A DNA stretch of 64,000 nt from assembly GCF_004010195.1 (NCBI RefSeq), contig NC_057718.1, positions 40,661,173-40,725,172 of the forward strand, written 5' to 3'. This document shows positions 5,349-60,452 of this stretch, in pieces. Each line of letters opens with the position of its first letter. Position 1 is the stretch's first letter. A model generated the notes under the pieces. That model made no database searches. It had not been told where the DNA came from and saw nothing but the letters and a program-made list of their open reading frames with translations. Made by a program: the position numbers and the translations under genes. Source of the stretch: Chiloscyllium plagiosum. Taxonomy: Eukaryota.

Positions 5349-5440
5349 AAGAAGGGCTTATGCCCAAAATGTCGATTCTCCTGCTCCTTGGATGCTGCTT
5401 GACCTGCTGCACTTTTCCAGCAACACATTTTTCAGCTCTG
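5349..5440 (+). mobile_element. Short PLE-terminus insertion (family A) starting inside a degenerate hammerhead motif
   Basis: aagaagggcttatgcccaaaatgtcgattctcctgctcc; 12-bp TSD ctctgttgtatg at 5337-5348 and 5436-5447. Confidence 0.8.
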
Positions 5441-5455
5441 TTGTATGGTGCCTGG

Positions 5456-5754
5456 ACATTTAATTGTGAGGGTCCCAGCATAGGAGTGTTCTTCCTATTT
5501 GTTTCCACGGAAAGGTTTGCCAAGCTTCTGGCGCATGCCTGTGCAATGAGTGGAATATCACATCATCACAGGAGAGAAGTCAACCTGGCTCTGACACTCA
5601 CTAGCACACTCAGAGAAAGAGATGGATTCCATAATGGAAGATCCAACCAGGGATCCACAGGCTGACAACTGTCAGGTTTCTGTCATTAATATAAAGCAAA
5701 AACATTGGAAATGTTCAGCAGGTTTGGCAGTATCTCTGGAGAGAGGGACTAAGT
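5456..5754 (+). repeat. Local direct duplication, copy 1
   Basis: Aligns by eye with 6764-7047; ORFs 5302..5523 and 6562..6831 share their N-terminal peptide. Confidence 0.9.
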
Positions 5755-5944
5755 TAACATTTCAGATTTTTCATCAGAACCAATTTGTGTCAATCTCAGG
5801 GTTTCAGAAGGCTCTTGTGCAGGTGATTAATGTCTTTTCTATGTATTCATCCCATCACAGTTCTCAAGTGCTAGTTCCATCAGGGCACTGGCGTGTTCAT
5901 CCACAGTGGATGGGTCCACACGGACAAAGTGCAAATCCCATATC

Positions 5945-6040
5945 ATAAGGGTTCACAGGACTCCAAATGTTAACTCTGTTTTCGCTCCAAAGATGCTACA
6001 TGACCTGCTGAGTTTCTTTTGGAATTTCTGTTTTTGTTCT
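5945..6040 (+). mobile_element. Degenerate PLE terminus (family C)
   Basis: aaatgttaactctg...gatgctacatgacctgctgagtttc...aatttctgtttttgt, similar to 60381-60452. Confidence 0.6.
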
Positions 6041-6154
6041 TTTCAAACAACCTTCATTGTGCACGCTACCGTTTGTACTTTGAACACTAAATGTAGTGGC
6101 TGGTTTAACCCAGACGTTTTGGTGTTTGATATCTGGTATGATAGCAAAGACGTT

Positions 6155-6701
6155 TTAGAGTTAGATTTAGGTTTTATAGTCATGTGTACTCAAGTACAGG
6201 AGAATAGGAATACAGTGAAAAGTGTAAAAGTTGCCATTCACTGGTGCCACCTTAGGTACAAAAACCCGAATTAATAAAAAAAAACCAAGTTACAAAAACT
6301 AGAATTTTTTTTAAAAAGCAGAAATACAAAAAAAAAGCCAAGAAAAAATGTGGAAGCATCCAGATCTAAAAGTCTTACCTTCACATTGTAGTCTTATCTT
6401 ATTAAGGTACCCAAAGCCTGGGGGTCTCAGTGCTGTCGCAGGCCCCTGGAACCTTGCTCCCAACTGCCCCGCCAGCCCTCAGGAGTCACTCCTCAATTCC
6501 GTTACTGCTGAATCCTGGAACATGCTATCCCTGACCTGTTACTGCAATTCTGCTCTTGCTCTCACCAATGCCCCACTGAAGATGCCGCAGAATGCAAAAA
6601 GAAAAGAAAAAGGAGTAAAAGAAAATAAAGGAAAACAAAAGGAAAAGTAGGCAGAAGCGGACAAGCCCAAACGCTGCCCTGCCACTCCACAGCCATCTTG
6701 G
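6155..6701 (-). mobile_element. Non-coding retroposon with 5' CCAAGATGGC and a cttttcactgta...gtaca(c)atgac-aataaa-like tail
   Basis: Same 5' and 3' blocks as 19078-19712 and 52690-53086; possible TSD aaaga(c/t)gt. Confidence 0.65.
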
Positions 6702-6763
6702 AAAAAGATGTGCTAATTATACTTCCTTGTGAGTTGCAAGATGTGATTTCAGAGTAAATAAAC

Positions 6764-7047
6764 ACATTTAATAGTGAGGGTCTCAGCAAAGGGGAGTTCT
6801 TCCTATTTGTTTCAACTGAAAGGTTTGCCAAGCTTCTGGTGCATGCCTATGCAATGAGTGGAGTATCACATCATCACAGGAGAGAAGTCAATCTGGCTCT
6901 GACACTCACTTGCACACTCAGAGAAAGAGGTAGACTCTGTAATGGAGGATACAACCAGGGAGCCGCAGGTTTCTGTCATTAATATAAAGCAAAAACACTG
7001 GAAATGTTCAACAGGCTTGCCAGTAGCTCTGGAGAGAGGGACTAAGT
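6764..7047 (+). repeat. Local direct duplication, copy 2
   Basis: Matches 5456-5754 apart from a 15-bp indel. Confidence 0.9.
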
Positions 7048-7119
7048 ACTCAGAAAAAAGGGATAAATATAAAACTGTTATAATCATTTTTATTATTCCC
7101 TCAAGGGTTCTGGGTGTCC

Positions 7120-14502: not shown

Positions 14503-16665
14503 AAAAAAAACTTCATGCCTGTTGTTAGGCAGTTATTCTTTGTGCAAAGAAGTGATTGTAGGAGGCATACATTCTGAAATTGCTTAACTGGACTTTGTGA
14601 TAGGAGGAATCGTAATGTACAATTGAATAAGAAGCTGGTCAAATCCTTCTTTATCTGCAAGCTTCAATGCAACAAAATATACTGATTGAGAATTATGAAT
14701 GTCTGTATAAAAACTCTTACATCTAAACATTTGTGAAATTGTTAAACAATTTTAAGAGTATAGAACTTCCAATAAAAAAAAAGCCACCAGATAATACTTT
14801 CTTGGTCACATAATGCAGTGGTAACTTTGGCAAGAGTTTTGCATTTTCTGCTGCTATTGGCTGTCCCTTCCATGAGTTTTATTTGCTTTAACATTGACTT
14901 CACCTTGGTTCATTAATGAATCAATCAATCACAAAATTCAATTATTCCTTAACACTTTGCACAATTAAGCATAAATCCTTTAATCATGTTAAACAAGGTT
15001 GAAGATTACCTACTTGGATAAATAAATTAAAAGAAAGGCCCTTCAATTATCATTGCCTATTTCTCCTTCTATATAACTTAAATAGCTACTTGCAGTTTTA
15101 TTCTAGCAGTTAAGGTTGGTGATCAAGTAAGGATTACAACTTTTAATAAATTCTCCAGTGATATCTCTCCATGATAAAAGGTCTAGATGCAAGATGAGTA
15201 AATCTCTTCTTAATTCAATAGTTCATTTTAAAAATAACTGAATCCTGGCACTCTGAAATATAAATGTATAGAGTTATATTGATGTTTTAGACCAATTATT
15301 CAAAATGCAATTTTCAGATGTTTTTCTTAATGTTTAAGGACAAACAAGGGATGTTTCATTCTCCATTCCAACCTGGCACCCACTCTGCTATAACAGTTCA
15401 CTAAATATACCTTACCTCTGTTTCTGATGTTGCTGGTTCACGTTTTCAATCCATCCCAATTTCAATCTTGTCAGTCCCAGTGCCACAAAGCGCATTGATA
15501 TCAATTTAAAATGCTTATTTTAAAAGTGAATGCATGCTCCTTCAATGAAATAATTGTGCTTTAATTAAACAGCGCAAATTTGTGTTCCGTCAAACCAACA
15601 AAGAGCCATGGTATTAGTTTATTGGAAAGGGCGATGCTTTACAACACAGCCTTTGTTATGCTGTAATCATTTAGTTAGCATGCGATCTTCTGTTGACAGG
15701 CAAATCAAGTGTTTCTGAAGTGTTGAGATTATAATAACAACCCCTCATCAATCATTTCTGCTACATTGCTGGTAGTAAAGCATACACAATTAGAAGGTCA
15801 GGCTTAACAAAAACAAAAAAATATACAAGTCAAGGCATAGTTGACTGCAAAATGTAATCATGAATATATGAAATGTTTATAACTATTACTACGTGCTGTA
15901 CTTCATACATTGGTTACTAGCTAAATGAATTGTGGCAGGCCTGGGCTCTTAAGAAAAAATCTCAATTTCATGCCCAAGAGTATTCTACTGAAATATCGAT
16001 GGAAAGGTCATTGTTCTGCTTAGCTCTATTTCTCTCCCTCTATAGATGCTGCCAGACACACAGAGTATTTCCAACATTTTCTAATTATGCTTTTGCCCCT
16101 CACAATGTTTTAATAATGGCGACAGGTGATGACTTTATGACTTCTGATATAATGCACAAAGCTGCCAAGTATTTCTAACTGTCGGGGTGTTGCAAATTAT
16201 TTAGCATTATCTAATTTATAATGTAACATAGCTCCCACAGTAATATCCCCTTGTGGCCTAAATTGGCTATTGTACAGCAAAAGGTATTTCACTTCATCAG
16301 TTTGTTTCAGATGTGAAATGTGTCCAGAACCTTCTTATTTGTAGGCATATACAACTGAAGAATACAAAAGATATATTGGTCATTATACTGGTTAGAATGC
16401 CCATTGGTCATCTTGGGTGCCTCTCTGAAATGGAATGGGACTCAACTTAATGTTACATCAAAAGTCATCACCTCTGACAATGCAGCACCCTCTCAGTATT
16501 GCACTTCTAATGAGAATATATTGTACTGACATAAAATCTGAACAAGCTGATACCAAGTTGATGGTTAATGACATAAATAAGCCCTTGGATTTGCCCCTCT
16601 TTCATTCTTCAATCATTTTTTGTGAAATGCAAAACAAATTCCAGATTGATATAGAAAAGTTGCAG

Positions 16666-17000
16666 ATAAAAACCCATTGTACTCTTTGCTACCTTCCCCC
16701 CACCCTCCTCTCTGACCTATCACCTCCATCCCCACCCCCCCCTCCCCATTCACCTACTGTACTCAATGCTTCGGTGAGCCCATGTTCACCTGGGCGGCAC
16801 GGTGGTAGTGGGCGGCACGGTGGCACAGTGGTTAGCACTGCTGCCTCACAGCGCCACACCCCCTCTCATTTATCTCTCCACTCTGCAGGCACCCTGCCTC
16901 TGTTCCTGATCAAGGGCTTTTGCCCGTAACGTCGATTTTCCTGCTCCTCGGATGCTGCCTGACCTGCTGTGCTTTTCCAGCACCACTCTAATCTAGATCC
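16666..17000 (+). mobile_element. PLE 3' fragment (family A) with a captured V-SINE head
   Basis: 15-bp TSD atagaaaagttgcag at 16651-16665 and 17001-17015; mutated hammerhead motif 16906-16933; SINE head 16791-16855. Confidence 0.8.
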
Positions 17001-17409
17001 ATAGAAAAGTTGCAGCAATTCTCTAACCAAATAAAATGTATCTAATATTTTCTATTTGGACAGCAATGTGCATTTTGAAATGTTCACTTTGTTTCCCTCT
17101 TACTTGGTGGAATTTTGTCAGTTTTGGGACCAAGAGTGCAGGCATAAAATCAGGAGGTGCTTCGCTTTGCAGGGGACAGATTTTCTCACCCTTAAAATCT
17201 TTTTAAGTTCATTTCAGATTGCATATGTATACATGAGTAATGCATCAAATGTTATGGACATGTGGGCAGGGAGTCTGATCCCCCTCCATCAACAAAGACC
17301 TTCAAGGGGAGTTAAACTTGTGAAGCTTACTTAAAAAGCACCAAGACTTCACTTTCTGCAAACCTCCACTCAGCATCTCACCCAGCCCTGGAGATGCCAG
17401 AGACCTGGG

Positions 17410-17633
17410 AAAAAGCCAGCACCATGGTTCAGTGACACCGTCTTAGGTGCTCACTTGACAGCTGTACAGTAAAGAAGGGAAGATCTTTTCCCTAACTATG
17501 GCAACAAATGTCAATCCTGACTGTGAAGGCAACCTGGACAGCGGTACATTTGGAGATCAATGTCCACGGATGTCTCAAAGGAACCTGGTTCCAGTGCTGC
17601 AAGTGGATGAATGTTCTGTTGTGTTCTGCCAGG
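17410..17633 (+). pseudogene. Harbinger Myb/SANT-like DNA-binding ORF, first coding segment (decayed)
   Basis: KKPAPWFSDTVLGAHLTAVQ*RREDLFP.../VKATWTAVHLEINVHGCLKGTWFQCCKWMNVLLCSAR followed by GT; fits the Myb/SANT-like trihelix pattern F-S...W..V...N......TW.QC.K. Confidence 0.7.
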
Positions 17634-18211
17634 GTTCATGGTCAGTCTACACTATGCTCCATGAGAATGTGTTAGCATTGTAAGATTGTGTCAGTGCAGA
17701 GGACTGTCACACATAGGGTTAGGAGCCAGGCATCTCCATCAGCTGCTTCATGTACATTGCATGCCTATCATTTAATTGCAGCTAGTAATTTAGCACTCCT
17801 GGCACTGCCCTGGTACTGTCTCTCACACATCTGCCAAACATAAAGGGTAGCTAAAGCATTCAGTAGCTGTCAGCTCACTGCTTTTTCTCATAACTAGGAG
17901 AACACATCCATCTGATAGATTTTCACCAAAATGTTGCATGGGAAAAGACGAAACTACCTTTGGGATGAACATTTCACGGGTATCTCAGGCACGTGCGTCA
18001 TATAATGATGTATTGCTTTTCAGCAACTGTAGCTTTTTGACTTCATACCTACCATTCAGAACTCTTTAACTCCTAACATCTGCTATTCCATATTCTTATT
18101 AGTAACACACATGGACAGTCACAGCCCTGGGATTTGCATATTTATCTGTATCTACCAATGGCAGCAAAGTGCTCATGTACTCACAGCAATGCTGTTCTCC
18201 ATCTCTCCATC

Positions 18212-18345
18212 TGCAGAAGGAGAAGGTATACAATAAGGATGAATGTGTCCAGACGTGGGGAAGCCTGATGTAAGATTCCTGAAAGCCTTCTGGGTGAAGG
18301 CCATTGAGCCAGCAGGAGAGCATGGGCAATGTGCCCATGCTCAGG
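18212..18345 (+). pseudogene. Harbinger Myb-like ORF, second segment (decayed)
   Basis: Pyrimidine tract plus CAG, then EKVYNKDECVQT/GKPDVRFLKAFWVKAIEPAG, resembling the TGGG-containing segment that follows the Myb domain. Confidence 0.5.
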
Positions 18346-19077
18346 TGAGGACTGGATATCTGCAGCCATCTCATGAGAAACCTTCCCACCTGCTATTCCC
18401 AGCTGCACGTGAAGCAGCAATGTCTTTGTGAAGCTTTAAGTAAGGTTTCCGTCTCACGACATGAACAAATCTACGCGTTTTTCTGTGCAACCACCAGACC
18501 CCACTCCAAAGGCTGAAGAAAAAGGAAGAGCCGCAGCTCCAAGCCCACCCCTCCCACCCCCTCAGATTCTCAAAGGATACAATTTTCTTTCCACTCTCTG
18601 CCAGCATAGAGATACTCACTTCAGTTGCTCACCTGGATAGAATAGGGTCAGGGTCACATTCTGGTGAGCACAGCTCTGATTTGGGCCTGAAACTAGAGGA
18701 GGAAAAAATGGTCATGGTCTCTGTCCCTTGGAGGACTGCTGAGCCTGGTATGGATGAGGAGCCTCTGGTCTTGGCTGTTAATGAGCTGACCAGGATGCAA
18801 AAGCAAGCATGGGAATGTCTGTCAGAGATCACACGCAGGCTAAAGTAAAGGATAGAGGAGCCTGCTCAAGATGTCATGGTTCTTGCATGCAAGAACATGG
18901 TTGCCTCCATGGCCAGCCACCACAAAAAGGAAGATCTAACTGAACAGTCAGTATCGGTGGGATACATTTGGGAGCTTGCAGTCCATTGTTTGAGCCACTC
19001 ATTTGCTGGATAGGTAAAGTGAGACCTAGGGACCTTGAACTCACTCTTACTGTTTCATCCAAGAGTCATCCTTTAAA

Positions 19078-19712
19078 TCCAAGATGGCAACAGAGTAGGA
19101 CACTTCAGCCGGGGCTCATCTGCTGCATCCATTTCTTTATCTTTCTTTCTCTTATTTTCTCTCTTTTGTTTTTCTTCCCCATCTTCTCTTTTCTTCCTTC
19201 TTTCATTTTTCCCAAAGACTCCTGGCCTCAGCGCAGACCCAGTGAGGTGTCGTCTTGGCCTGGTGTCGTGGCCTCCTGGCCCAGTGTGGCAGTCTCCAGC
19301 CTGATCTGGCGTAGCGGTTTCTTGGCTCGGTGTAACCTTAGCATGGACTTCCAGCCACAAGGTGAATCCAAAGTGGTCTCCTGGTCTAGATAGCCTCATG
19401 GTGAAGCCCGGTACAGTCTGGAGTGAAGGCCAAGTGGGGACTGGAGGCAAAAGGCCACCATGGACTGGATTAGAAGAACTGTTGTACTGAACTTTTTATT
19501 TCTCTACTTTTATAATTTATTCCTACAATCTGCAATGCTGGGCATTTTATTTCTTTATTTTTCTAATTTTTTTTCCCTCCGAGAACTTACACAGAAGAAT
19601 CTGTACCTAAGTATCTTTCCCTAAGATGGCACTGTAAGTGGCAGCTTGTTAACTTTTCACTGCGTTCATTTGAGTACATGTGACAGTAAAGCTCATTGAA
19701 TTCAATTCATTC
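19078..19712 (+). mobile_element. YY1-motif-headed non-coding retroposon inserted in the Harbinger remnant
   Basis: Starts tccaagatggc; ends cttttcactgcgttcatttgagtacatgtgacagtaaa plus (ttcaa)n; possible TSD tcctt(t/c)aa. Confidence 0.7.
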
Positions 19713-19898
19713 CTTCAAGGGGTGAGGGAAGTGTTATTGAATACAACAGACCGGGATTGCCTGGACACTCATAAAGATCTCTGCTGCATTAACCCTCCTC
19801 TATCAGGGACCTAAATGTCTCCATTAATTTAGGCTCAGGAGGTTAACCTATATCTGTGTAGGTGAGACCCAGACACTTGAAAACATACACTAAAGTCA

Positions 19899-20128
19899 TG
19901 ATTCGGAGATGGCGGTGTTGGACTGGGGTGTACAAAGTTAAAAATCACACAACACCAGGTTATAGTCCAACAGGTTTATTTGGAAGCACACTAGCTTTCG
20001 GAGCGACACTCCTTCATCAGGTGATTGACAATCAACTGATGAAGGAGCGTCGCTCCAAAAGCTAGTGTGCTTCCAATTAAATGTGTTGGACTATAACCCG
20101 GTGTTGTGTGATTTTTAACTTTGTACAC
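19899..20128. mobile_element. Fold-back (palindromic) PLE-terminus element, family B
   Basis: About 100-bp inverted arms; 13-bp TSD tacactaaagtca at 19886-19898 and 20124-20136. Confidence 0.85.
19989..20023 (-). ncRNA. Minimal type I hammerhead ribozyme motif, intact core (family B)
   Basis: Minus strand reads CAC-CUGAUGA-A-GGAGU-guc-GCUCC-GAAA-G-CUA-GUG: stem I CAC/GUG, stem II of 5 bp, palindromic AGCU in place of stem III. Confidence 0.7.
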
Positions 20129-20807
20129 TAAAGTCAATTACCACAAAACAGTCAGCAGGTTTCCTCAAGCTCAGGTGTAGCTACCAAGTTAACAGCCAGA
20201 TGCTGTGGTAGGAAAAGAAAGATTCAGCATTATTGAAGTCATGTTTGGTGCTTGGATGATAATACTATATGAAATCTGACAGTTTGCAAATATAACACTT
20301 TGTCCAGCAGTACTGTGGTTTTTTTTCAGGCTGTTAAGGATCCTGACTATTTATGTTTTCCTTGTGGATACCCTGATGTTCACCCTAGTCCCTCACAAGC
20401 CAACCTCGTTGGCAGTTCAAAAAGCACTGTGGATCTCATTCTCTGCTACCCTCTGGCTGGAATATAACCTCTAAAGCAGGGAGCTAACTTAATGTTGGAA
20501 GGTTAAAAGTCAATCAGTATATTTTAGCTCATTGACATCTCTATAGAAGATGAATTCCCCTGGAATCTGAGGATTGAGTCACTTAATTGCATCCCTTATG
20601 TAATCCAGTTTAACTCCATTCTGATGCTTGGCCAGAGACTAACATGAGATTATTGGTGCAGAAAGAACAAAGTCACTTATAATTAATAACAAACAAAGTA
20701 ACTTAAGGTTTTAAAATTACAAATAAAACACGCCCTTGAAGGCAGGAATGCCTCTGTGCCATAATTAGCTCACAGATCTGCTTGTTCACATATGTTAATG
20801 CAAAGTC

Positions 20808-21640
20808 ATTCAAACTGAAGTCTAACTGCTATCAGTTTATTGTGGGCTGGTCTGCCTCATCTCAGCATTAACCAGTATTCTTCAATATCCTCATCATTAA
20901 CGATAGCTCCCTCAGTATTTCCATCAGACTCCCCTTCTTCTCATCTGAGGGAACAGTAGCTGGTCCATTTCCCCCTCTTCTAGGTCTTACCCCACCATCG
21001 AACTAGATTAGCAGGGTCCAATCACAATTCTGGAGAGTTTGTGCAGCGAATATTGGAGTGCTCCTCCTGAGAGGTTCATGCAATGGAAATCTCCAGAGCT
21101 CAATTATCTGTTTAATGATGGTCTCAGAGAATGCGTAGGCTGCATTGTAACACTGTTTCACATCATTCTGCGAGGTTTGTTCTGGGATCATGAACCATGT
21201 CTTCTGAAATATCCCTTGTCACCCATAAATGAGCTGTGGAGTTGATGAAGGTAAGAAAACATTCAAGCAGCCTGGAAATTGTGCAGAATGTAAATGTCTT
21301 GCCTGCTCCCTGGGTAACAGGCACACACTTTCAGGAATCGTTGTCTGCAGTCACAACCAAGCTGCATTAAGGGCGTGAAATCCCTTCTTGTTTCAGGAAT
21401 TGAACTGGATGTTACCTTGGAGCTCTGAGCACCACAAGTGTACAATTGATGGCTCCTTTTGCCTGAGCGAACACAGCAATCTTTGGCTCCATGTTGAAAA
21501 AAGAAAACTTTATTGCTTTCCTTCCAAGGATATCAGTGAACTCATAGCTGCTTTTGTTGGCTGCCAATTTGGAGGTGCCACACATATCTCTCCACACTAG
21601 ATTTGCAAAGATGTCTCCAGCACTAGCTTTCACTGATCTG
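20808..21640 (-). pseudogene. PIF/Harbinger DDE transposase (HARBI1-like), decayed
   Basis: Frame-shifted motifs in the expected order: DMCGTSK, IAVFAQAKGAINCTLVVLRAP, QLGCDCRQRFLKVCACYPGSRQD, MGDKGY, WFMIP, YNAAYAFSETIIKQIIE, then an acidic tail and LIAVR. Confidence 0.85.
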
Positions 21641-24084: not shown

Positions 24085-24326
24085 TAAGAGAAAGTGAGGA
24101 CTGCAGATACTGGAGATCAGAGTCGAGAGTGTGGTGCTGGAAAAACACAGCAGGTTAGGCAGCATCCAAGGAGCAGGAGAATTGACATTTTGGGCATAAG
24201 CCCTTTATCATGAGTGAGGCTTCTCAGCCTCATTCTTGATGAAGGGCTTATACCTGAAACGTGGACTCTCCTGCTCCTCGGATGCTGCCTGACTTGCTGT
24301 GCTTTTCCAACACCACACTCTCGACA
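24085..24326. mobile_element. Fold-back PLE-terminus element, family A
   Basis: Inverted arms, each with a degenerate hammerhead; 14-bp TSD tttctctttcttgc at 24071-24084 and 24327-24340. Confidence 0.85.
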
Positions 24327-25589: not shown

Positions 25590-25785
25590 GTAACATCACC
25601 ATAGTCTTATCAGATCATAGAACTCTCTTGCATTAGAGAGGGACAACTGATAGCAGTTTAACCTGAGGTTAAGGGGACAAGTTGAGAAGGACGGTCCTTC
25701 ATGGTAACCTCAGCACATGTATGAATTGAGGTCATGCTGTTGGATCACTCTGCATCTCAAGCTAGTCATCTAGCCAATTGAGCAA
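25590..25785 (-). mobile_element. tRNA-derived SINE (same family as 38990-39205)
   Basis: Reverse complement shares gttaccatgaagga...ctctctaatg...ctatggt blocks with 38990-39205. Confidence 0.6.
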
Positions 25786-26170
25786 ATTGAGAGATCAATA
25801 TTATTGGGATTGTCTCCTCCTCCTCATATTTTACAACAAAATCCTGTCATTGGGTATTTTATTGCCACCTGAGAAGTCAGACAGGTGGAGTTTTGCAGCA
25901 CTCCCATTGGACTGCACTGTGATGTGGACTGGACACTCTGAGAGAGGTCCACTTACTGACAAAGGCTGCATCCATAGTGCTAATGCTGTCTCTGGAGGAG
26001 ATTCCCTTGCAGTTGTTGGGATCTGCCTGCTTGTCTCTGTCATTGGAGCAATGTTTGTACTTCTGCTGCGAGGGTGACCTCGGAATGGTTACCTCTCTCA
26101 GCGACCCTGCAGAGTTGCTGCCTCTCTGGGTCAGAACCATGGAGATCTAGCCTGTTCTCTTAATAGCATA

Positions 26171-26300
26171 GGTAAAAACAATGACTGTAGATGCTGGAAA
26201 CCAGATTCTGGATTAGTGGTGCTGGAAAAACACAGCAGTTCAGGCAGCATCCGAGGAGCAGTAAAATCGACTTTTCAGGCAAAAGCCCTTCATCAGGAAA
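26171..26300 (-). mobile_element. Short PLE-terminus insertion (family A) with near-intact hammerhead
   Basis: Minus strand CUGAUGA-A-GGGC-uuuu-GCCU-GAAA-A-GUC (26269-26296); 12-bp TSD cttaat(a/t)gcata at 26159-26170 and 26301-26312. Confidence 0.8.
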
Positions 26301-26925: not shown

Positions 26926-27069
26926 CCCATTCTATTCTGTGCTGCTATTTTTATTTCAGTGATCCATCTTCCACTATACTTCATCTAACCCTCTCAAGGT
27001 ATGTTTTATTCTTGTGCCTTTATTTCCTTCACCCAAAATCAAATACATTTATCTTATTCACCTCACCTA

Positions 27070-31065: not shown

Positions 31066-31328
31066 AAAATCACACAACACATTTGGAGATGCTGGTGTTG
31101 GACTGGGGTGTACAAAGTTAAAAATCACACAACACCAGGATATAGTCCAACAGGTTTAATTGGAAGCGCTAGATTTCAGAACGATGCTCCTTCATCATTG
31201 TGTACAACTTGATGAAGGAGCAGTGCTCCGAAAGCTAGTGCTTCCAATTAACGCTGTTGGACGATACCCTGGTGTTGTGTGATTTTTAACTTTGTACACC
31301 CCAGTCCAACACCAGCATCTCCAAATCG
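31066..31328. mobile_element. Fold-back PLE-terminus element, family B
   Basis: About 118-bp inverted arms (atttggagatgctggtgttgg ... ccaacaccagcatctccaaat); hammerhead motif at about 31209-31240; TSD caaataa(t/a)attg at 31054-31065 and 31329-31340. Confidence 0.85.
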
Positions 31329-31718: not shown

Positions 31719-31915
31719 GAGAAAGTGAGGACTGCAGATACTGGAGATCAGAGCTGAAAAATGTGTTGCTGGAAAAGTGCAGCAGGTCAGGCAGCATCCA
31801 AGGAGCAGGAGAATCGAAGTTTTGGGCATAAGCCCTTCTTCTGAAACGTCAATTCTCCTGCTCCTTGGATGCTGCCTGACCTGCTGCGCTTTTCCAGCAA
31901 CACATTTTTCAGATC
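31719..31915. mobile_element. Fold-back PLE-terminus element, family A
   Basis: Inverted arms joined inside the hammerhead motif (about 31840); TSD taatttaa(t/c)cag at 31707-31718 and 31916-31927. Confidence 0.85.
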
Positions 31916-33129
31916 TAATTTAACCAGCCTCCCTTGGTTAACAACCAATATGCAATTCATTATGTGAAAAGGGCTTGTTCTTAGACACTACCAGATCTAA
32001 AGCATCGCAAAAAAAAGGCCTTAATTGACATATTTTCCCATTGTTCCTTTCAATTTAAAAAGCACCTTGTCACTGTTGGGGATGTCATCAGCAGGGCTCG
32101 TGAGGTAGCGAGCTCACCGTCTGGGTGACAGCACGTGATGCCTTGTCTTATCAAACCGGTAGCAAAATATGTTAGTGCAGTTACTACAGACTCACTTTCC
32201 TTTAAATTTGCCATCACTCGCCCACTTCTCAAAACCTTTCACCCTAAGGAGCTACCTTTGATCCCCTTCTATTACTCGTCAAGCAATTGCCCCATCTTTA
32301 TCATCTGAAAGCGCAATGTTACTTTGCATGCATCTACCGCCACTTCTCCAAATGTCTTTTTTTAGACAATACAGCATAAAAAATTAATAATCTTTTAATG
32401 AATCTCAAAGTTCAGCCAGAGTTTAAACTAGGGATCATTCTTGAACTTTCTCTTTACAGCAGCATATGAAATATCCTTTTAAAATGGTGATGACCAGAAT
32501 TGCACATTGTGTTCCATGTCTAGCCTGACAAGTGTAATGTAAATTCTCTGTAGACTAATACTCTATTTCACTGGTTACATATTCGAAAAAGTTATTTTTC
32601 TTCTTAAATTACTTCTCCATATTATCTTGAGATTGCAGGGAAGCTACTGTGGTTTCAATTTCTCCTTGTGCTAATTCTATTCCCTTTATTGAATCCCTGC
32701 ACTATGTAATAATTGCATGTTCCAAAGTTACATTTAATTTTCCATTAGGCTGTCCAGCTGTAGAATGGGTTTAAAACTTTTTGTTTTTATAGTTATCAAG
32801 TTGACATTAATTAATCAATAAAGCATTAGATTGTGCCTCCTCCATTCCCAACCTTAAGATCAAATGCAAAACTTATAATTATGTTGCTTAGTGAATTTTT
32901 TTCAGACATTTCACCTAATGTTTCTGCTAATGTACTAAACTGATTCTCCTGTCTCCCCACCAATTAGATAAGCAAACAAAATTGTGATCCATGATGTGAA
33001 TTGGCCTCCAACAGGATGTTTTACCTGATGTAGCAATATTTGTGTTATCTCCTGTAACATAAGAAACTGAGTGTGGATATCATGATATTGAAGAATCTAA
33101 TATACATTTGTGACAACTAACTAAAATGA

Positions 33130-33780
33130 ACAAAGTTAAAAATCACACAACACCAGGTTATATTCCAACAGGTTTATTTGGAAGCACTAGCTTTCAGAGC
33201 GCTGCTCCTTCATCAGGTGGTTGGGAGTGTAAAATCATAAGACACAGCATTTATAACAAAATTTTACAGTGTGATGCAACTGAAATTGTATTGGAGAGAT
33301 ATGGGCCGGGTGCTGGCAGGTGGGACAAGATTGGGTTGGGATATCTGGTCGGCATGGACAGGTTGGACCGAAGGGTCTGTTTCCGTGCTGTACATCTCTA
33401 TGACTCTATGACTCTATGACCTAGATTATTTGTTAAGTTTCTCATCTTTTAGAATTACCATGTTGGTTTTAGTTCTTTCATATGTAAATCCCAGAACCTT
33501 TTTTTAAAGTTGCATTCTCAAGTGAAATAGATGCCATGTGGGCTCAGATAATGCATTGAAGGTGCGAGGTGCCCTGTATGAGGCTATATTTCAGTTGCAT
33601 CACACTGTAAACTTTTGCTATAAATCCTATGTCTTACGATCTTATACTCCACAACCACCTGATGAAGGAACAGTGCTCCAAAAGCTAGTGCTTCCAAATA
33701 AACCAGTTGGACTATAATCTGTTGTTGTGTGATTTTTAACTTTGTACAGCCCAGTCCAACACCGACACCTCCAAATCACA
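33130..33780. mobile_element. Longer fold-back family B PLE element with a nested CR1 tail
   Basis: About 160-bp inverted arms; hammerhead motifs at 33185-33219 (-) and 33656-33690 (+); CR1 3' tail inserted at about 33295-33420. Confidence 0.8.
33185..33219 (-). ncRNA. Minimal hammerhead ribozyme motif (family B), core intact
   Basis: CAC-CUGAUGA-A-GGAGC-agc-GCUCU-GAAA-G-CUA-GUG. Confidence 0.6.
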
Positions 33781-34275
33781 TAATAGCAAACATTAGATTC
33801 CCAAGGCACAGAAGTATCCTGGCTAATATTAAGCTACTAATGTACACTTCAGCAGGATACACTCAGCAGAGTGTCATGCTTCAAGTGATTTGAGTTAAGA
33901 TGGGGTATGAGATCTTTATATCCTCAGGTCATTTGCAATGGTGGTATCAAGTCCTACCAGATCCAAAGGTGTAGAATACCATCTCAGAACAGGTTGCTTC
34001 GAAAATATGATACTGATATATTCACTATGAGAATGAAACAACGTCCCTTTTCTTCCAAAGACAAAAGCTCATCTCAAGCAAATAAACATGATTGGATGTA
34101 GGCACTTGTCAAGTTGATAATGATAGAAACAGATAAGGTGGACTTGGCACACTCCAAATTTATGGTCTGGACCAGTTGCATATTCCAGAAACCTTTGCTG
34201 GTATCCAAACATTTTTATTTGTATTTCTAACTTTGAATCTCTGGCCCAGCATGCAGCTTACTCATTGCCTATCTC

Positions 34276-39850: not shown

Positions 39851-40110
39851 GCTGGGTAGGTGGAAGGGGAAGGTGTTGTAATCAAAGTGGAGGACTGAGG
39901 ACATGCTCAGCAGTTGTTGAACTTAATATGTTGAGTCTTTGAGGCTGTAAGGAGCCTAAGGAGAAAATTAGGTTTAGTTCCTCCAACTTGGGTTGAGCTT
40001 TGTTGGCACATTGTAGCAGGCTCGAAATGAAAATGTCAGGATGGGATCAAGATTGAAAGATCAACTGGAAGGTTGGAGTCATTCTTGTGGACAAATTGGA
40101 GGTGCTCCAC

Positions 40111-40348
40111 AAGGCAGTCACCAAGTCTGCATTTGGTGTCACCAATATAAAAGCAGTCACTCAGTCTGCGTTTGGTCTCGCCAATGTGAAAGCAGTCACT
40201 CAGTCTGCCTTTGATCTTGCCAATGTGAAAGCAGTCACTCAGTCTGCGTTTGGTCTCGCCAATGTGAAAGCAGTCACTCAGTCTGCCTTTGATCTTGCCA
40301 ATGTGAAAGCAGTCACTCAGTCTGCCTTTGGTTTTGCCAATGTGAAAG
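40111..40348. repeat. 39-bp tandem repeat, 6 units, inside the GIY-YIG coding region
   Basis: Unit aaagcagtcactcagtctgc(g/c)tttg(g/a)tct(c/t)gccaatgtg; units 2 and 4 are identical, as are units 3 and 5. Confidence 0.95.
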
Positions 40349-40520
40349 AGGCCACTTTGTGAACAGCCAATGAAGTAGACTAGATTGACAGAGGTATAAG
40401 TAAAATGCTAATACACCTGGAAGGTGTGTTTGGGGTCTTGGACAGAAAAAAATGTCAATGAAGGGTGAGGAAGTGCTTGAAGTTGTGGAGGAGTGGATCA
40501 GGATGTCACAAAGGGAACAG

Positions 40521-40622
40521 GTCAGGCAGCATCAAAGGAACAGGAGAATCGACGTTTCGGGCTTATGCCAGCAACACACTTTTAACTCTGATCTCCAGCA
40601 TCTGCAGTCCTCACTTTCTCCT
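40521..40622. mobile_element. Short family A PLE insertion with an internal inversion
   Basis: 13-bp TSD acaaagggaacag at 40508-40520 and 40623-40635; orientation switches within the gggcttatgcc hairpin. Confidence 0.8.
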
Positions 40623-43526: not shown

Positions 43527-43717
43527 CACAAAGTTAAAAATCACACACCAGGCTCGAGTCCAACGGGTTTATTTGAAAACACGAGCTATCGGAGCGCTGC
43601 TCCTTCATCAGCAGCACTCCAAATGCTAGTGCTTCCAAAAAAACCTGTTGGACTATAACCTGGTGTTGTGTGATTTTTAACTTTGTACACCCCAGTCCAA
43701 CACCGCACCTCCAAATC
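43527..43717. mobile_element. Fold-back PLE-terminus element, family B
   Basis: 11-bp TSD caatctatttg at 43516-43526 and 43717-43727; the arms meet at the hammerhead. Confidence 0.85.
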
Positions 43718-44933: not shown

Positions 44934-45060
44934 TCCTGAAGAAGGGCTTATGCCCGAAACGTCGATTCTCCTGTTCCTTGGATGCTGCCTGACCTGCTGC
45001 GCTTTTCCAGCAACACATTTTCAGCTCTGATCTCCAGCATCTCCAGTCCTCACTTTCACC
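44934..45060 (+). mobile_element. Short PLE-terminus insertion (family A) beginning at a hammerhead
   Basis: 8-bp TSD tcaccact at 44926-44933 and 45056-45063. Confidence 0.8.
44936..44963 (+). ncRNA. Minimal hammerhead ribozyme motif, intact core (family A)
   Basis: CUGAAGA-A-GGGC-uuau-GCCC-GAAA-C-GUC; palindromic ACGU replaces stem III; stem I is only about 2 bp. Confidence 0.7.
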
Positions 45061-45111
45061 ACTAAATCCAGCCCAGTTTCTAGGTCATAATCCTGAATGG
45101 TCCACTAAGAT

Positions 45112-48834: not shown

Positions 48835-49520
48835 ACATTCAATAGCATCATCACTGGATCCTCCATCAATCAGAAATATTAACCAGCCAGCCATATAAAA
48901 ATTGTGGTTACAAGAGCAGGTCAGAGGCTAGGAATTTTGCGAAAGAAGGGTTATACTTGAAATGTTGACTTCTTCACCTCCTGATGCTGCATGACTTGCT
49001 GTGTTCTTCCACCATCCTGCTAGTTTATCTAATGTGAATATTCTCTATTTGCCTGGCTGAATGCAGCTCCAACAACACTTAAGAAACTATACATCATCCA
49101 GGATATCCCATTTCATCAGCACTCTATCTGCCACCTTGAGTATTAATTCGCTCTACTACTAAATACAGCAGCAGCACTGCGTACCATTTATGAGATGATC
49201 TACTACAATTTACAAGCATCCGTTAACAACACCATCCAAACCTCCGATCTGAACCATCTGAAAGAACAAGGACAGCAGATGCATGGGAATACCATTGTCT
49301 GCAACTTCCCCTCCAACTCACGTACCATCCTGATTCGGAACTCTGTCACCATTCCTGCACTATGGCTGGATCATAATGCTGGAACTCACTGTAGTATTAC
49401 TGTGCGTGTAGCTACACCTCATGTACAGCAACAGTTCAAGAAGGCAGCTCACACCCACCTTCTCAAGGGCACTTTGGAATAGCCAGCAAAGATTGACCTC
49501 ATATCCCAACAATAAATGAA
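48835..49520 (+). mobile_element. Older CR1-clade LINE 3' part with a small degenerate PLE terminus at about 48941-49025
   Basis: Homologous to 40895-41232 and 9740-10015. Confidence 0.65.
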
Positions 49521-54284: not shown

Positions 54285-54690
54285 ATGCTGGAAATCTGAA
54301 ATAAAAGCAGAAAATGATGGAAAACCTTTGCAGGCCGGACACTATTTGTGGAGGGAGACACAGAGTTCAGGTCAGTGAGCTTTCATCAGAATTAAGGCAA
54401 GTTAGAGTCGTGTTTGGCTTTAAGCGAATGAAGGGGGAATGATGAAGAAAAATGCTAAAGGGGAGATTGTGATAACAGGAAGTGCAGGAGCAGTGACAAA
54501 AGAGTTGGTGGTGCAACACCAAAGGGATTGTTAAATGGGCAAGGAATAAGTGACGTTTCTAGAGGAGCAAATTAGTGTAGATGCTGGAATCTGTACGAAA
54601 ACAAAAATGCTGGAAATCACAGCAGATTAGGCAGCATCCGTGGATTGAGAGCAAGCTAATGTTTCAAGTTGAGATAACTCCTCATCCTAC
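54285..54690 (-). mobile_element. Two degenerate PLE 3' termini
   Basis: atgctggaaatctgaaataaaagcagaaaatg...ctttcatcaga and gatgctggaatctg...ggcagcatccgtgga blocks, each with a decayed CUGANGA...GAA motif on the minus strand. Confidence 0.55.
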
Positions 54691-56211
54691 TTCTCGAGAG
54701 GAGTGTGAATGGCAAAATGGTGGATAGCTGCTCTCCAAAAGAGAAAACAGAAACAAGAGAACAACCAAAACCAAAAACGAAGACAACATGGCAAGAGAGG
54801 TTATGTGTGATATAGTTGAATGCTGTGTTGAGTTCAGAAGAGCACCTCGTCAAAGTAATTTACCTGCTGCATAAGAATGGAACAGAAATACAATTTCATT
54901 TAATTACTGGAGAGTGAATTACAATAAGTACATTGAATTAGAATTTTCTTTACGATTTCAAACAAGTATGCTGTTTTGAAAAATGTAGGGGGTGATGGAT
55001 TCTCAGTGGAACATAACACGAACAGCCAACTTTCTGGTATTGAGACTGGCTCTAAAGCAATGAGGGATACCTCAGGTTCCAAGAGATCAATTGTGTTAGG
55101 GGATTCTCTAGCCAGAGGTACAGACAGATGTTTCTGTGGCCAGCAGCAAAAAAACAGAATGGTGTGTTGCTTCCCTGGTGCCAGGATCAAGGATGTCTCA
55201 GAGAGGGTGCAGAATGTTCTCAAGGGGGAGAGGGGTCAGCAGGAAGTCATTGTCCACATTGGGACCAATGATATAGAAGGGAAAAAGGTTGAGATTCTGA
55301 AGGGAGAGTACAGAGAGTTAGGCAGGAATTTAAAAAGGAGGTCCTTGAGAATAGTAACATCTGGATTACCCCCAGTGCTATGAGCTAGTGAGGACAGGAA
55401 TAGGAGGATACAGCAGATGAATTCATGGTTGAGGAGCTGGGTGTGTGGGAGAAGGATTCACATTTTTGGATCATTGGAAGCACTTTGGATAGAAGTGACC
55501 TGTACAAGAAGGATGGTTGCACTTAAATTGGAAAGGAACTAATATACAGGCAGGGAAATTTGCTCGAGCTGCTCGAGAGGGTTTAGATTAGTAAGGCGGG
55601 TATGGCGGCCCAGAGAGATAGTGAGGGAAGCGATCAATCTGAAACTGGTGCAGTTGAGAACAAAGGTGAGTCAAACAATCAGGGCAGGCAGGAACAAAGC
55701 AGAGAACAAGGTTGGACTGATAAATTAAATTGCCTTTATTTCAATGTAAAAGGCCTAATAGGGAAGGCAGATGAACTCAGGGCATGGTTAAATACATGGG
55801 ACAGGAATATCATAGCAATTACAGAAACATGGCTCAGGGATGGACAGGACTGGCAGCTTAATGTTCCAGGTTCCAAAGCTACAGGAAGAACAGAAAGGGA
55901 GGCAAGAGAGGAGGGGGAGTGGCATTTTTGATAAGGGATAGCATTACAGCTGTGCTGGGGGAGGATATTCCCGGAAATATATTCAGGGAAGTTATTTGGA
56001 TGGAACTGAGAAATAAGAAAGAGATGATTACCTTATTGGGATTGTAGTATAGACCCCCTAATAGTCAGAGGGAAATTGAGAAACAAATTTGCAAGGAGAT
56101 CTCAGTTATCTGTAACAATAATTGGGTGGTTATGGTAGGGGATTTTAACTTTCCAAACCTAGACTGGGACTGCCATAGTGTTAAGGATTTAGATGGAGAG
56201 GAATTTGTTAA

Positions 56212-56528
56212 GATTAGATTAGATTTGTCTACTTATAGTGTGGAAACAGACCCTTCGGTCCAACAAGTCCACACCGACCCTCTGAAGAGCAACCCACCCA
56301 GTCCCATTCTCCTATGTTTACCCCTGACTAATGTACCTAACACTATGGGCAATTTAGCATGGCCAATTCACCTACACTGCACATCTTTGGACTGTGGGAA
56401 GAAACCAGAGTACCCAGAGGAAACATACGCAGACACGGGGAGAACGTGCAAACTCCACACACACAGTTGCCCGAGGTGGGAATTGAACCCGGATCTCTGG
56501 CACTGTGAGGCAGCAGTGCTAACCACTG
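56212..56528 (-). mobile_element. HE1-type V-SINE nested in CR1 ORF2
   Basis: (gatta)n tail and V-domain; the flanks rejoin as ttaag-tgtgtacaag, as in the uninterrupted copy near 36640. Confidence 0.9.
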
Positions 56529-58122
56529 TGTACAAGAAAAATTTCTGATTCAGTATGTGGATGTACCGACTAGAGACGGTGCAAAACTTGACCTACTCTT
56601 GAGAAATAAGGCAGGGCATTTGTCTGAGGTATCAGTGGGGGAGCACTTTGGGGCCCGCGACCATAATTCTATTAGTTTTTAAATAGTGATGGAAAGAGAT
56701 AGACCAGATCTAAAAGTTGAAGTTCTAATTTGGAGAAAGGCTAATTTAGATGATAATAGGCAAGAACTTTCAAAAGCTGAATGGGGGAAGATGTTCGCAG
56801 GTAAGGGAATGGCTGAAAACTGGGAAGCCTTCAGAAATGAGATAACGAGAATCCAGAGACAGTATATTCCTGTTAGGATGAAAGGAAAGGCTGGTAGGTA
56901 TAGAGAATGCTGGATGACTAAAGAAATTGAGGGTTTGGTTAAGAAAAAGAAGGAAGCATATGTAATGTATAGACAGGATAGATTGAGTGAATCCTTAGAA
57001 GAGTATAAAGACAGTAGGAATATACTTAAGAGGGAAATCAGGAGGGCAAAAAAGGGGACATGAGATAACTTTGGCAAATAGAATTAAGGAGAATTCAAAG
57101 GGATTTTACAAATAGATTAAGGACAAAAGTGTAACTAGGGAGAGAATAGGGCCCCTCAAAGATCAGCAAGACGGCCTTTGTGTGGAGCCACAGGAAATGG
57201 GTGAGATACTAAATGAATATTTTGCATCAGTATTTACTGTGGAAAAGGACATGGAAGATATAGAATGTATGGAAATAGATGGTGACATCTTGAAAATTGT
57301 CCATATTACAGAGGAGGAAGTGTTGGATGTCTTGAAATGCATAAAAGTGGATAAATCCCCAGGAACCAAACAGGTGTACCCTAGAACTCTATTGGAAGCT
57401 AGGGAGTGATTGCTGGGGCTTCTTACTGAGATATATATATATCATCGATAGTCACAGGTGAGATGCCGGAAGACTGGAGGTTTGCTAACATGGTGCCACT
57501 GTTTAGGAAAGGTGGTAAATGAGCTTGATATCGGTGGTGCATAAGTTGTTGGAGGGAATCTTGAGGGACAGGATGTACATGTATTTGGAAAGGCAAGGAC
57601 TGATTAGGGATAGTCATCATGGCTTTGTGCATGGGAAGTCATGTCTCACAAACTTGATTGAGTTTTTTGAAGAAGTAGCAAAGAGGATTGATGAGTGGCA
57701 GTATGGACTTCAGTAAGGCGTTTGACAAGGTTCCCCATGGGAGACTGGTTAGCAAGGTTAGATCTCATGGAATACAGGAAGAACTAGCCATTTGGATACA
57801 GAACTGGCTCAAAGATAGAAGACAGAGGATGGTGGTGGAGGGTTGGTTTTCAGACTGAAAGCCTGTGACCAGAAGGATCAGTGCTGGGTCCACTATTTGT
57901 CATCATTTATATAAATGATTTGGATGTGAGCACAAGAGGTATAGTTAGTAAGTTTGCAGATGACACCAAAATTGGAGGTGTAGTGGACAGCGAAGAAAGT
58001 TACCTCAGATTACAATGGGATCTTGGTCAAATGGGTCAATGGGCTAAGAAGTGGCAGATGGAGTTTAATTTAGATAAATGTGAGGCGCTGCATTTTGGGA
58101 AAGCAAATTTTAGCAGGACTTA

Positions 58123-58256
58123 NNNNNNNNNNNNNNNNNNNNNNNNNNNNNNNNNNNNNNNNNNNNNNNNNNNNNNNNNNNNNNNNNNNNNNNNNNNNNN
58201 NNNNNNNNNNNNNNNNNNNNNNNNNNNNNNNNNNNNNNNNNNNNNNNNNNNNNNNN
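58123..58256. other. Assembly gap (N run)
   Basis: 134 N bases. Confidence 1.
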
Positions 58257-58907
58257 AAGATGTTGACAGGGTTGGAGGATTTGAGCTACAGGGAGAGGCT
58301 GAACAGGCTGGGGCTGTTTTCCCTGGAGCATCGGAGGCTGAGGGGTGACCTTATAGATGTTTATAAAATCATGAGGGGCATGGATAGGATAAATAGACAA
58401 AGTCTTTTCCCTGGGGTGCGGGTGTCCAGAGCTAGAGTGCATAGGTTTAGGGTGAGAGGGAAAAAGATATAAAAGGAACCTAAGGGACAACATTTTCATG
58501 CAGAGGGTGATACGGGTATGGAATGAACTGCCAGAGGAAGTGGTGGAAGTTGGTACAATTGCAACATTTAAAAGGCATCTGGATGGGTATATAAATAGGA
58601 AGGGTTTGGAGGGATATGGGCTGGGTGCTGGCAGGTGGGACTAGATTGGGTTGGGATATCTGGTCGGCATGGACAAGTTGGACCGAAGGGTCTGTTTCTG
58701 TGCTGTACATCTCTATGACTCTATGACTCTATATCTTCACTTTCTTGAACTGTCATGGATCACCAGTAAATCGAAGAGATTTCCCTCACTAAATGATTGA
58801 AGTAATTTCCAGGCTTGCTGTAATTTTGTTCTCTCATTTAGAAGTTGAAGCAGAGGTCAAATGCTCTCAATAGATGGGTACATGAGCCTCAGTTATAGGC
58901 ATAAGAT

Positions 58908-59008
58908 ATACACAGAGGAGCCTCGATTATCCAGCATTTGATTAACCAGATTTTGGATTATCTGAACAAGATCGTGAGGCCCTGATGCTTGGCTAACTAT
59001 GTTATCCA
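58908..59008 (+). mobile_element. Possible Tigger/pogo-like DNA transposon end
   Basis: TA-cacagaggagcctcgattatcc with repeated gattatcc/gattaacc subterminal motifs; no partner terminal inverted repeat (TIR) found. Confidence 0.4.
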
Positions 59009-59009
59009 T

Positions 59010-59515
59010 GGAGAAAGTGAGGACTGCAGCTGCTGGAGATCAGAGTCGAGAATGTGGTGCTGGAAACGCACAGCCATTCAGGCAGCATCCGAGGAGCGGG
59101 AGAGTTGACGTTTCGGGCATAAGCTGTTCATCACAAATGAGGCTTGTGGGTGGGGGCTGAGAGATAAGTGGGAGGGGGTGGGGTTGGGGGGAAGGTAGCT
59201 GGTATGAAANNNNNNNGGGTTGGGGGGAAGATAGCTGGTATGAAAGTGAGGGAGAGGGTGACAGGTCAGAGGGGGCAGTCATGGATGGGTCTGGAGGGTG
59301 GTGCCGAGTTGGAGGCTTGGGATTGTGGGGGGGGGGGAGGGAAAAGCTGCTGAAATCCATATTCCTCCTGTGTGGTTACAGGGTCCCAAGACGGAATATA
59401 AGGCCTTCCACCTTCAGGCATCGAGTGGTAACGGTTTGGCTGTGGAGGAGGCCCAGGACCTCCCCCCACATTATCCCAACCTCAAGCCTCCAACTCAGCA
59501 CCACCCTCCAGACAC
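59010..59515 (-). mobile_element. PLE 3' fragment (family A) with GIY-YIG C-terminus and a short inverted 5' piece
   Basis: Minus strand VLGLLHSQTVTTRCLKVEGLIFRLGTL; hammerhead motif at about 59105-59133; 59461-59515 is an inverted copy of about 59285-59335. Confidence 0.8.
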
Positions 59516-59854
59516 AGGTTCCTTTTTATACTTTTAACAGAGGCAGAGGAGAAGCAATAGGGCGGACAGCATAGAGACCCTGTGCAAACGACATAGGGGT
59601 TGTTAATAGTGGAGAAAGAAAACAAACATAAAAGGGGTGGGGCAGGGGTAAATTAAGGTGTGAAAGAGAGAGATTTGGCCCTTGCTTCTGAGCACAAAGT
59701 AAGCAAGATACAAACATGAGATAGGTGGGGGGCAAGTGGGGCTGGGGGCTAGGAGAAATGAAGGGCATAAATAGTGGTCACGTTTAGAAGTTGTTAAATT
59801 CAAAGTTGACACCTCCAGGCTGTAGAGTCCTTCAACTGGAAATTGTTAAATCTC

Positions 59855-60119
59855 GACAGTGCAGGAAGCAGCCATTTGTCCATTGAGTCTGCACTGAACC
59901 TCTGTAGAGCATTCCACCCTTCCCACTCTAGCCCCGTATCCCCGTTTTTACTATGGCCAATCGACCTAACCTGCACATCTTTGGACAGTGGGAGGAAAGC
60001 GAAATACCCAGCAGAACGAAAACAGGGAGAACGTGCAAGCTCCACACAGTCACCCAAGGCTGGGATCGCACCCATGTCACTGGTGCTGTGAGGCAGCAGT
60101 GCTAATCACTGTACCACCC
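59855..60119 (-). mobile_element. Diverged V-SINE
   Basis: V-domain and tRNA head in reverse orientation. Confidence 0.8.
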
Positions 60120-60337
60120 TGTGAAAATGTAGTATTGGCCCTTGTGTTTGAGTTGTGCTTTGTTGGAAAATTACAAGCTCTCATGCAAACACTTCTGTCT
60201 TGGGCATGTCCTGAGAGCTTTGGAATAAATAAACCAACACTAACAGAGGCTTTGCTGAAGATAACAGAAGCAGCAGCGGAACTGAAGCAGGAGCCATGGA
60301 GTTAAGGAGGTAGAAGTGAACATTTCAGTAATGGTGC

Positions 60338-60452
60338 GAAAACAGAAATTGTTGGACAAACGCAGCAGGTCTGGCAGCACCTGAAGAAGGATCTTTGGAC
60401 CTGAAATGTTAACTCTGCTTCTCTCTCCACAGATGCTGTCAAATCTGCTGAG
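60338..60452. mobile_element. Fold-back PLE terminus, family C, with hammerhead-like motif
   Basis: CUGAAGA-AGGAUC-uuug-GACCU-GAAA-U-GUU at 60381-60410, preceded by an inverted copy of the downstream tail. Confidence 0.6.

Follow-up and report, generated by a model that had tools for sequence, protein, structure and literature searches.

Short hammerhead-bearing insertions in a Chiloscyllium plagiosum contig, probable decayed products of endonuclease-bearing Penelope-like elements

Described systems and the hammerhead motifs of the window

Minimal hammerhead ribozymes (min-HHRs) have been described in the pseudo long terminal repeats (pLTRs) of metazoan Penelope-like elements (PLEs). They are of type I without helix III, with an extra base after A9, a G10.1-C11.1 pair and a palindromic 15.2-16.2 segment; several families occur per genome, mostly as single motifs ascribed to truncated PLEs and in some cases as pairs on opposite strands, and thousands are found in coelacanth and Xenopus (PMC4209133, whose surveyed passages do not mention sharks). 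Endonuclease-bearing (EN+) PLEs insert as a pLTR beside a head-to-head inverted, 5'-truncated pLTR, with an optional tail of 30-40 bp on one arm and a target-site duplication (TSD) round the whole insert (PMC3846280, PMC8557442). In PAc, Poseidon of Anolis, two classes of 3' end bound the tail, about 110-145 nt beyond the ribozyme region; the RNA substrate is uncleaved, the ribozyme is inactive without protein, and reverse transcription starts at two internal sites in vitro (PMC11167929). We analysed a stretch of 64,000 nucleotides of Chiloscyllium plagiosum (contig NC_057718.1, positions 40,661,173 to 40,725,172; hereafter the window), which carries short units that resemble these systems in motif and in mode of insertion. 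The units are very probably short insertion products of EN+ PLEs, each made of the hammerhead-bearing pLTR end with or without a tail of 30-35 nt, and are likely inactive fossils by now. PLE hammerheads in thousands of copies being already described in other vertebrates, their presence here is an ordinary catalogue entry.

An initial annotation of this DNA had described more than a dozen copies of mobile, PLE-type minimal type I hammerheads in three families, A, B and C. The three cores that it cited were found at 44936-44963 (+), 19992-20020 (-) and 33188-33216 (-); its wider bounds for the last two, 19989-20023 and 33185-33219, hold the cores and also take in the 3-bp stem I. A strict scan of both strands with the pattern CUGANGAA-stem II-GAAANNUH, requiring 4 or more contiguous pairs in the stem, gave 4 exact matches, 4 with one substitution, 4 with two and 6 with three, against means of 0, 0, 0.5 and 5.4 in 12 Markov-1 sequences. 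At up to two substitutions the motif is thus far above chance (12 cores, 0.5 expected), and 11 of these 12 matches belong to family A or B. When stem II was relaxed to at least 3 pairs, 6 motifs were obtained against 1.0 in 50 null sequences. A scan of the window with Rfam gave no family at gathering score.

By homology, family A comprises 11 arms at 8 loci, family B 8 arms at 5 loci, and about six decayed remnants are C-like. Core and pair counts were made on 15 arms placed in structural register (MAFFT misaligned the A and B cores), the row A59135 being excluded. All 12 core bases (CUGANGA / GAAA / UH with helix II) were intact in 5 of these arms, and three were fully intact, with core, wholly paired stem II and Watson-Crick palindrome. 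The count of more than a dozen is therefore reached only by counting decayed homologues: the 13 loci with their 19 A/B arms, and the C-like remnants. Family C is based on the single decayed core 60381-60410.

The motifs agree with the min-HHR type of PMC4209133, as had been claimed. The extra base between positions 9 and 10.1 is present as in PLE-type min-HHRs (an unpaired base in the hammerhead is mentioned in the same source), pair 1 (G10.1-C11.1) is G-C or G.U in 15 of 15 registered arms, and the palindrome 15.2-16.2 is retained in 12 of 15. Stem II has 4-5 bp here versus 7-8 bp in the Schistosoma min-HHR, and stem I 2-3 bp versus 4-5 bp in helix I of min-HHRs (PMC4209133). Stem I shows 0-3 contiguous pairs, and the short copies (stubs) are often without its 5' strand; a mismatch-interrupted extension is possible. 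The family C core has 4 of 5 stem II pairs, an AUGU palindrome and no stem I. That stem II changes while its pairing is kept was true between families, where pair 3 is G-C in A and A-U in B, and pair 4 is C-G in A, G-C in B and U-A in C. Within a family each change turns G-C into G.U or breaks the pair, and compensatory differences were found only between families. Two old remnants at 48943-49014 (+) and 54590-54700 (-), with other stem II regions and the downstream block of A and C, are possibly further families.

Insertion architecture and the link to Penelope-like elements

The units are listed below; together, the 13 A/B loci account for 2757 bases (4.3% of the window).

44934..45055, plus strand: family A stub with tail; intact core 44936-44963, 2 nt of element before C3, stem I of 2 bp; weak 8-bp perfect repeat 44926-44933 / 45056-45063 (null 8%)
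19899..20123, minus strand: family B head-to-head pair; intact core 19992-20020 (-) in the arm with tail, second core 20036-20064 (+) with G12A and no tail; 13-bp TSD 19886-19898 / 20124-20136; insertion apparently absent in a related organism (organism B)
33127..33286, minus strand: family B longer copy with 70 nt upstream and TATAAAT; core 33188-33216 with every core base kept; no tail, no TSD found
33588..33785, plus strand: family B longer copy with tail; TATAAAT 33619-33625, core 33659-33687 with G12A; no TSD found
31066..31328, unstranded: family B head-to-head pair with a tail on each arm; cores 31170-31198 (-) and 31209-31237 (+), one substitution apiece; 12-bp TSD with 1 mismatch
43527..43716, unstranded: family B head-to-head pair, junction within the ribozyme; 11-bp perfect TSD
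5349..5435, plus strand: family A stub without tail; C3 lost, G12A; 12-bp perfect TSD
16666..17000, plus strand: family A longer copy with 240 nt before the core and a SINE-head fragment inside (SINE, short interspersed nuclear element); core 16906-16933 damaged; 15-bp perfect TSD 16651-16665 / 17001-17015
24085..24322, unstranded: family A head-to-head pair, minus arm alone tailed, both cores damaged; 18-bp TSD with 1 mismatch
26171..26300, minus strand: family A stub with tail; core 26269-26296 with all core bases and a broken palindrome; 12-bp TSD with 1 mismatch
31719..31915, unstranded: family A head-to-head pair, minus arm alone tailed; 12-bp TSD with 1 mismatch
40521..40622, unstranded: family A inverted-and-deleted copy without complete core; 13-bp perfect TSD
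59009..59516, minus strand: family A long copy with a 40-nt inverted piece, PLE endonuclease C-terminus 59447-59346 (broken), pyrimidine-rich stretch, damaged core from 59134, and tail
60345..60452, plus strand: family C decayed copy with a short inverted arm; core 60381-60410

The ribozyme stands at or close to the start of each unit, which continues for 90-125 nt downstream. Head-to-head inverted pairs were present at 6 of the 13 A/B loci, with the apex at or inside the ribozyme and a junction point that differs at each locus; the arms abut at the ribozyme, unlike the opposite-strand pairs described in PMC4209133. Counted from C3, the 3' ends fell into two groups, +86 to +95 and +116 to +125, the tail being the extra 30-35 nt; these two groups agree with the two internal starts of reverse transcription seen in vitro for PAc (PMC11167929). 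Four of the six pairs had one arm reaching about +88 and the other +118 to +125, one had a tail on both arms, and in one the inverted arm was truncated further. Clear TSDs, as direct repeats of 11-18 bp, bounded 9 of the 13 loci, 8 of them detected by a script (score of at least 9, reached by 2.3% of 300 random sites) and 1 by eye; in the Adineta EN+ PLEs they measure 8-10 bp (PMC3846280, PMC8557442). Most inserts here, of 90-260 bp, differ from those EN+ PLEs also in being without an open reading frame (ORF). The inverted pairs, the TSDs, the tails, the longer copies and the PLE protein remnant were all absent from the initial annotation. Two candidates were discarded: 33127-33286 and 33588-33785 as one interrupted insertion (no common TSD was found), and a 15-nt repeat around 60381 as a TSD, which belongs to the element sequence. 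The SINE-like head inside the longer A copy, at 16808-16856, has a short internal duplication, and the rest of the SINE is missing.

On the 5' side, 11 of 19 arms begin between -11 and +3 of C3, three begin at +8 to +19, and upstream extension is seen in four. No arm of the 19 begins at the cut site (+28/+29), and with 11 starting at -11 to +3 this indicates that the RNA templates were uncleaved. Another candidate origin is that of non-LTR retrozymes (LTR, long terminal repeat), tandem hammerhead repeats yielding circular RNAs. Those elements are likewise short, non-coding, PLE-related and equipped with a type I hammerhead (PMC7229834; bioRxiv 10.64898/2026.07.22.740005), the 100-260 bp of the units here would suit them, and they are known from one chondrichthyan species (bioRxiv 10.64898/2026.07.22.740005). 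They are described, however, as head-to-tail tandems with canonical, active ribozymes, whereas none of the 13 loci is a head-to-tail tandem, the five tandem arrays of the window carry no hammerhead, the cores belong to the minimal PLE type, and the copies show no circular permutation, each class of them holding sequence from either side of the cut site. We regard this origin as extremely improbable.

Evidence for a PLE protein came from the long A copy 59009-59516, where the pyrimidine-rich stretch upstream of the core is followed, further upstream, by a broken frame (59447-59346). This frame, read as a PLE endonuclease C-terminus, shares the strand of the 59134 core, lies 210 nt upstream of it and was the top match of the window to a profile built from the C-termini of 17 proteins with reverse transcriptase (RT) plus GIY-YIG; it scored 14.4 bits, and the reversed and five shuffled controls gave at most 5.9. 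Aligned with P0030, it was identical at 16 of 38 residues (pairwise E 1e-5). Just upstream of the same copy, 59831-59780 (-) weakly resembles a PLE C-terminus, its score of 2.0 bits being no higher than that of the control. A second remnant lies apart from the units:

39930..40440, minus strand: PLE GIY-YIG endonuclease remnant (broken), not joined to a hammerhead unit; contains a 39-bp tandem array

It matched a profile with an iE of 1.1e-6. The array, at 40114-40348, consists of six 39-bp copies within the broken frame, an in-frame repetition of the latter half of the motif; P0007, which is unrelated, likewise carries a tandem repeat across this region. The protein remnants matched RT plus GIY-YIG proteins, one of them labelled Pocillopora; in a search with representatives, 4 of 5 matches were repeat-driven noise and P0007 alone was GIY-YIG. 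No PLE RT remnant was found in the window.

Taking together the TSDs, the head-to-head inversion, the two classes of 3' end, the A copy contiguous with a PLE endonuclease and the neutral decay of the core (see below), we read the units as short PLE insertion products. Judged from sequence, they would conform to EN+ PLE insertions with a min-HHR: the tested architectural features were found, and the ORF upstream of the pLTR was found in part, as just its C-terminal 34-38 residues at one family A copy. The initial annotation had instead proposed three stand-alone non-autonomous units, which conflicts with the 4 of 19 arms that extend upstream, one of them into the endonuclease C-terminus. A related possibility is that the stubs are dedicated mini-elements, SINE-like partners of PLEs each forming a unit of transcription and copying by itself. 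Non-autonomous PLE derivatives have been described (PMC8557442; bioRxiv 10.64898/2026.07.22.740005), pLTR sequences suffice in trans (PMC3846280), and 15 of the 19 arms measure 130 nt or less, with clustered 5' ends. Against this, four arms extend upstream, one of them reaching coding sequence, the TATA-like box is missing from the stubs, whose 5' edge lies downstream of it, and the inversion junction differs at every locus, so the palindromes were not copied as a unit. We consider dedicated mini-elements unlikely in general, and possible for family B.

Organism B differs from this sequence by about 3% (130 of 3981 letters), and its contigs end within units at 16906, 24211, 26296 and 31843, so those insertions are shared. 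Another contig, of 4211 letters, aligned over 3981 letters to 24108-20124 and left 230 over; a contig of equal depth covers 19857 and ends at 19656, and the stretch 19885-19656 is exactly 230 letters. From these lengths, organism B would have an empty site in place of the family B insertion 19899-20123, with a single TSD copy left. The unit is present in a second sample of organism A.

Several points weigh against an origin from EN+ PLEs. The endonuclease match is short (38 residues, with one stop), the piece 59447-59346 did not match a second homologue, P0031, and no match was returned when homologues of the 43-aa endonuclease piece were searched for directly. No full-length PLE was found within the window, and families B and C have no protein link there, being assigned by architecture. 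No TSD was found at the 59009-59516 copy or at either long B copy. The 15 short arms are equally expected from a dedicated mini-element, the empty-site joint in organism B comes from lengths only, and the decay test described below is small, with arms of one pair that are not independent. Scans of metagenome contigs and viral contigs with the hammerhead pattern gave no match.

By comparison with PAc (PMC11167929), the PLE protein would nick the target and reverse transcription would begin at an internal site about 90 or 120-125 nt past C3, on uncleaved RNA. In a scheme that we favour by a little, short copies would result from priming near the RNA 5' end and run-off at a transcription start about 8-11 nt before C3, and the longer copies from priming at the downstream repeat of a long transcript. 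Stalling at stem II could replace run-off, and fits the three arms starting at +8 to +19. The mirror arm may come from a second priming event during insertion. The stubs mark both ends of the reverse-transcribed segment, so that the origin of PLE tails and inverted repeats becomes testable from genome data.

Catalytic state of the hammerheads

The catalytic core decays neutrally, at the rate of its flanks, in a small sample in which paired arms are not independent. Non-CpG changes affected 9 of 157 core positions against 84 of 1216 others (p 0.74), and CpG changes affected 6 of 18 core positions (G12 or its partner-strand equivalent) against 16 of 73 other CpG positions. Most copies carry a damaged hammerhead motif and are likely inactive. 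In folding calculations, stem II formed in 2 of the 3 intact cores, the first stem I pair had a probability of 0.01-0.05, the palindrome duplex reached -1.7 to -2.5 kcal/mol and cofolding did not yield a dimer. The inverted pair within 19886-20136 was predicted to form a hairpin of -169 kcal/mol (z -21.9) that buries the 19992 core, and since its two ribozymes are on opposite strands, no dimer can form within one transcript. No same-strand pair fit for dimer cleavage was found in the window, the nearest same-strand intact cores being 13 kb apart.

These values bear on the possibility that some copies are active ribozymes which, either as dimers or aided by protein, cleave host RNAs and so affect host expression. 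Three cores are fully intact, and cleavage by a PLE hammerhead has been seen in the presence of the PLE protein (PMC11167929); furthermore, family B sequence stands at the 3' ends of polyadenylated RNAs (see below), and cleaved RNAs would lose their tail and so be invisible in a poly(A) library. The neutral decay of the core, the weak stem I and palindrome, the burying hairpin and the distance of at least 13 kb between same-strand intact cores argue against it, as do about 300 reads that would pass through the cut site, with no pile-up of read ends listed. In published work, min-HHRs showed no cleavage as monomers and low cleavage as dimers (PMC4209133), and the PLE hammerhead cleaves only with the PLE protein, cleavage being dispensable for insertion (PMC11167929). 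We therefore hold active cutting of host RNAs to be quite unlikely. The latent cleavage sites in host RNAs suggested by the initial annotation are weakly supported: in their favour is the family B sequence at the ends of RNAs from other loci, and opposed to them are the neutral decay, the stem I of 0-3 bp, the self-folding inverted pairs, the lack of same-strand tandem pairs, the zero RNA depth on unique DNA over 14600-33900, and the inactivity of published min-HHRs as monomers or their dependence on protein.

RNA, poly(A) site and TATA-like box of family B

RNA data consisted of about 2% of one poly(A) single-cell run, mapped on 14600-33900. The unique DNA of these 19 kb had zero depth and no host transcript was seen; depth was absent in 14 of 30 bins and elsewhere tracks repeats. 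Most mapped reads are 90-95% alike and therefore come from other loci. Those of family B are sense-biased (98:31, 74:20), and those of family A show little or no bias. In two B copies, poly-T reads point to a homologous poly(A) addition position:

19960..19980, minus strand: family B poly(A) region; AAUAAA 19980-19975, poly(A) addition position 19960, GU-rich tract downstream
33158..33178, minus strand: family B poly(A) region; AAUAAA 33178-33173, homologous poly(A) addition position 33158

Loose poly-T reads numbered 343 at 19960 and 274 at 33158, mostly from other loci. The position is 15 nt past AAUAAA and ahead of the GU-rich tract, which has 1 A in 20 nt, making internal priming there unlikely. 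AAUAAA or AUUAAA is kept in 6 of 8 B arms, 9-11 nt past the ribozyme cut site, and the poly(A) tail begins about 30-32 nt behind the uncut hammerhead. At 20025, upstream of the core, 300 reads depart from the reference; their agreement of 0.91 suggests few source loci, and their lengths of 68 loose, 66 aligned and 18 loose would fit single 150-nt reads crossing the cut site from the tail. The expressed copy may carry a broken core, and a genomic A-tract at the source locus may explain the poly-T. No poly(A) site is described for PAc in the passages of PMC11167929 surveyed, in contrast to that seen here in family B, and no PLE poly(A) signal appeared in the surveyed titles, abstracts and passages of open-access papers, nor in a term search of PMC2377424.

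Both long B copies begin at about -71 and have TATAAAT about 40 nt upstream of C3. From a box at about -40, transcription is expected to start near -8 to -10, and it is there that the arms of 19899-20123 begin. The predicted layout would resemble that of an LTR, with TATA at -40, start at about -8, hammerhead from 0 to +28, AAUAAA at +38, poly(A) at about +59 and reverse-transcription starts at +88 and +125. The genomic copies continue past the poly(A) site for 30-65 nt, so their template was presumably not polyadenylated RNA. It is conceivable, and in our opinion rather doubtful, that the family B pLTR works like a true LTR: its dispersed copies would give cellular RNAs working poly(A) sites, the tail could be removed by the PLE protein or by a second copy cutting at the hammerhead 30 nt upstream, and only unprocessed read-through RNA would serve as transposition template. 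If the poly(A) site between the ribozyme and the insertion end is true, the template is unprocessed RNA, and there would be a direct route to ribozyme-dependent tail removal in vivo. At another locus, a LINE (long interspersed nuclear element) 3' end, as in 33291-33424, is joined on opposite strands to the start of the long B copy, as at 33588; this join is present in 24 RNA reads (19 starts) and in contigs of all three DNA runs.

The window has about 41% GC and no long intact reading frame. Among its repeats are RT and ORF1 fragments of LINE type, and one SINE-like repeat is represented by about 8 pieces. Pfam detected no host exon in 150 of 366 N-free stop-to-stop frames (all those of at least 70 aa, so short exons would escape), the matches being LINE-type RT, esterase-like ORF1 and weak noise only. 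Broken LINE-type copies with esterase-like ORF1 and RT fragments lie at 35026-36826 and 54957-58732, and N gaps at 58123-58256 and 59210-59216. A local duplication of about 290 bp (5456-5754 and 6764-7047, 86% identity) includes part of a decayed family C copy, and an 83-bp duplication of 97.6% identity (63766-63848 and 63918-64000) is located at the window edge.

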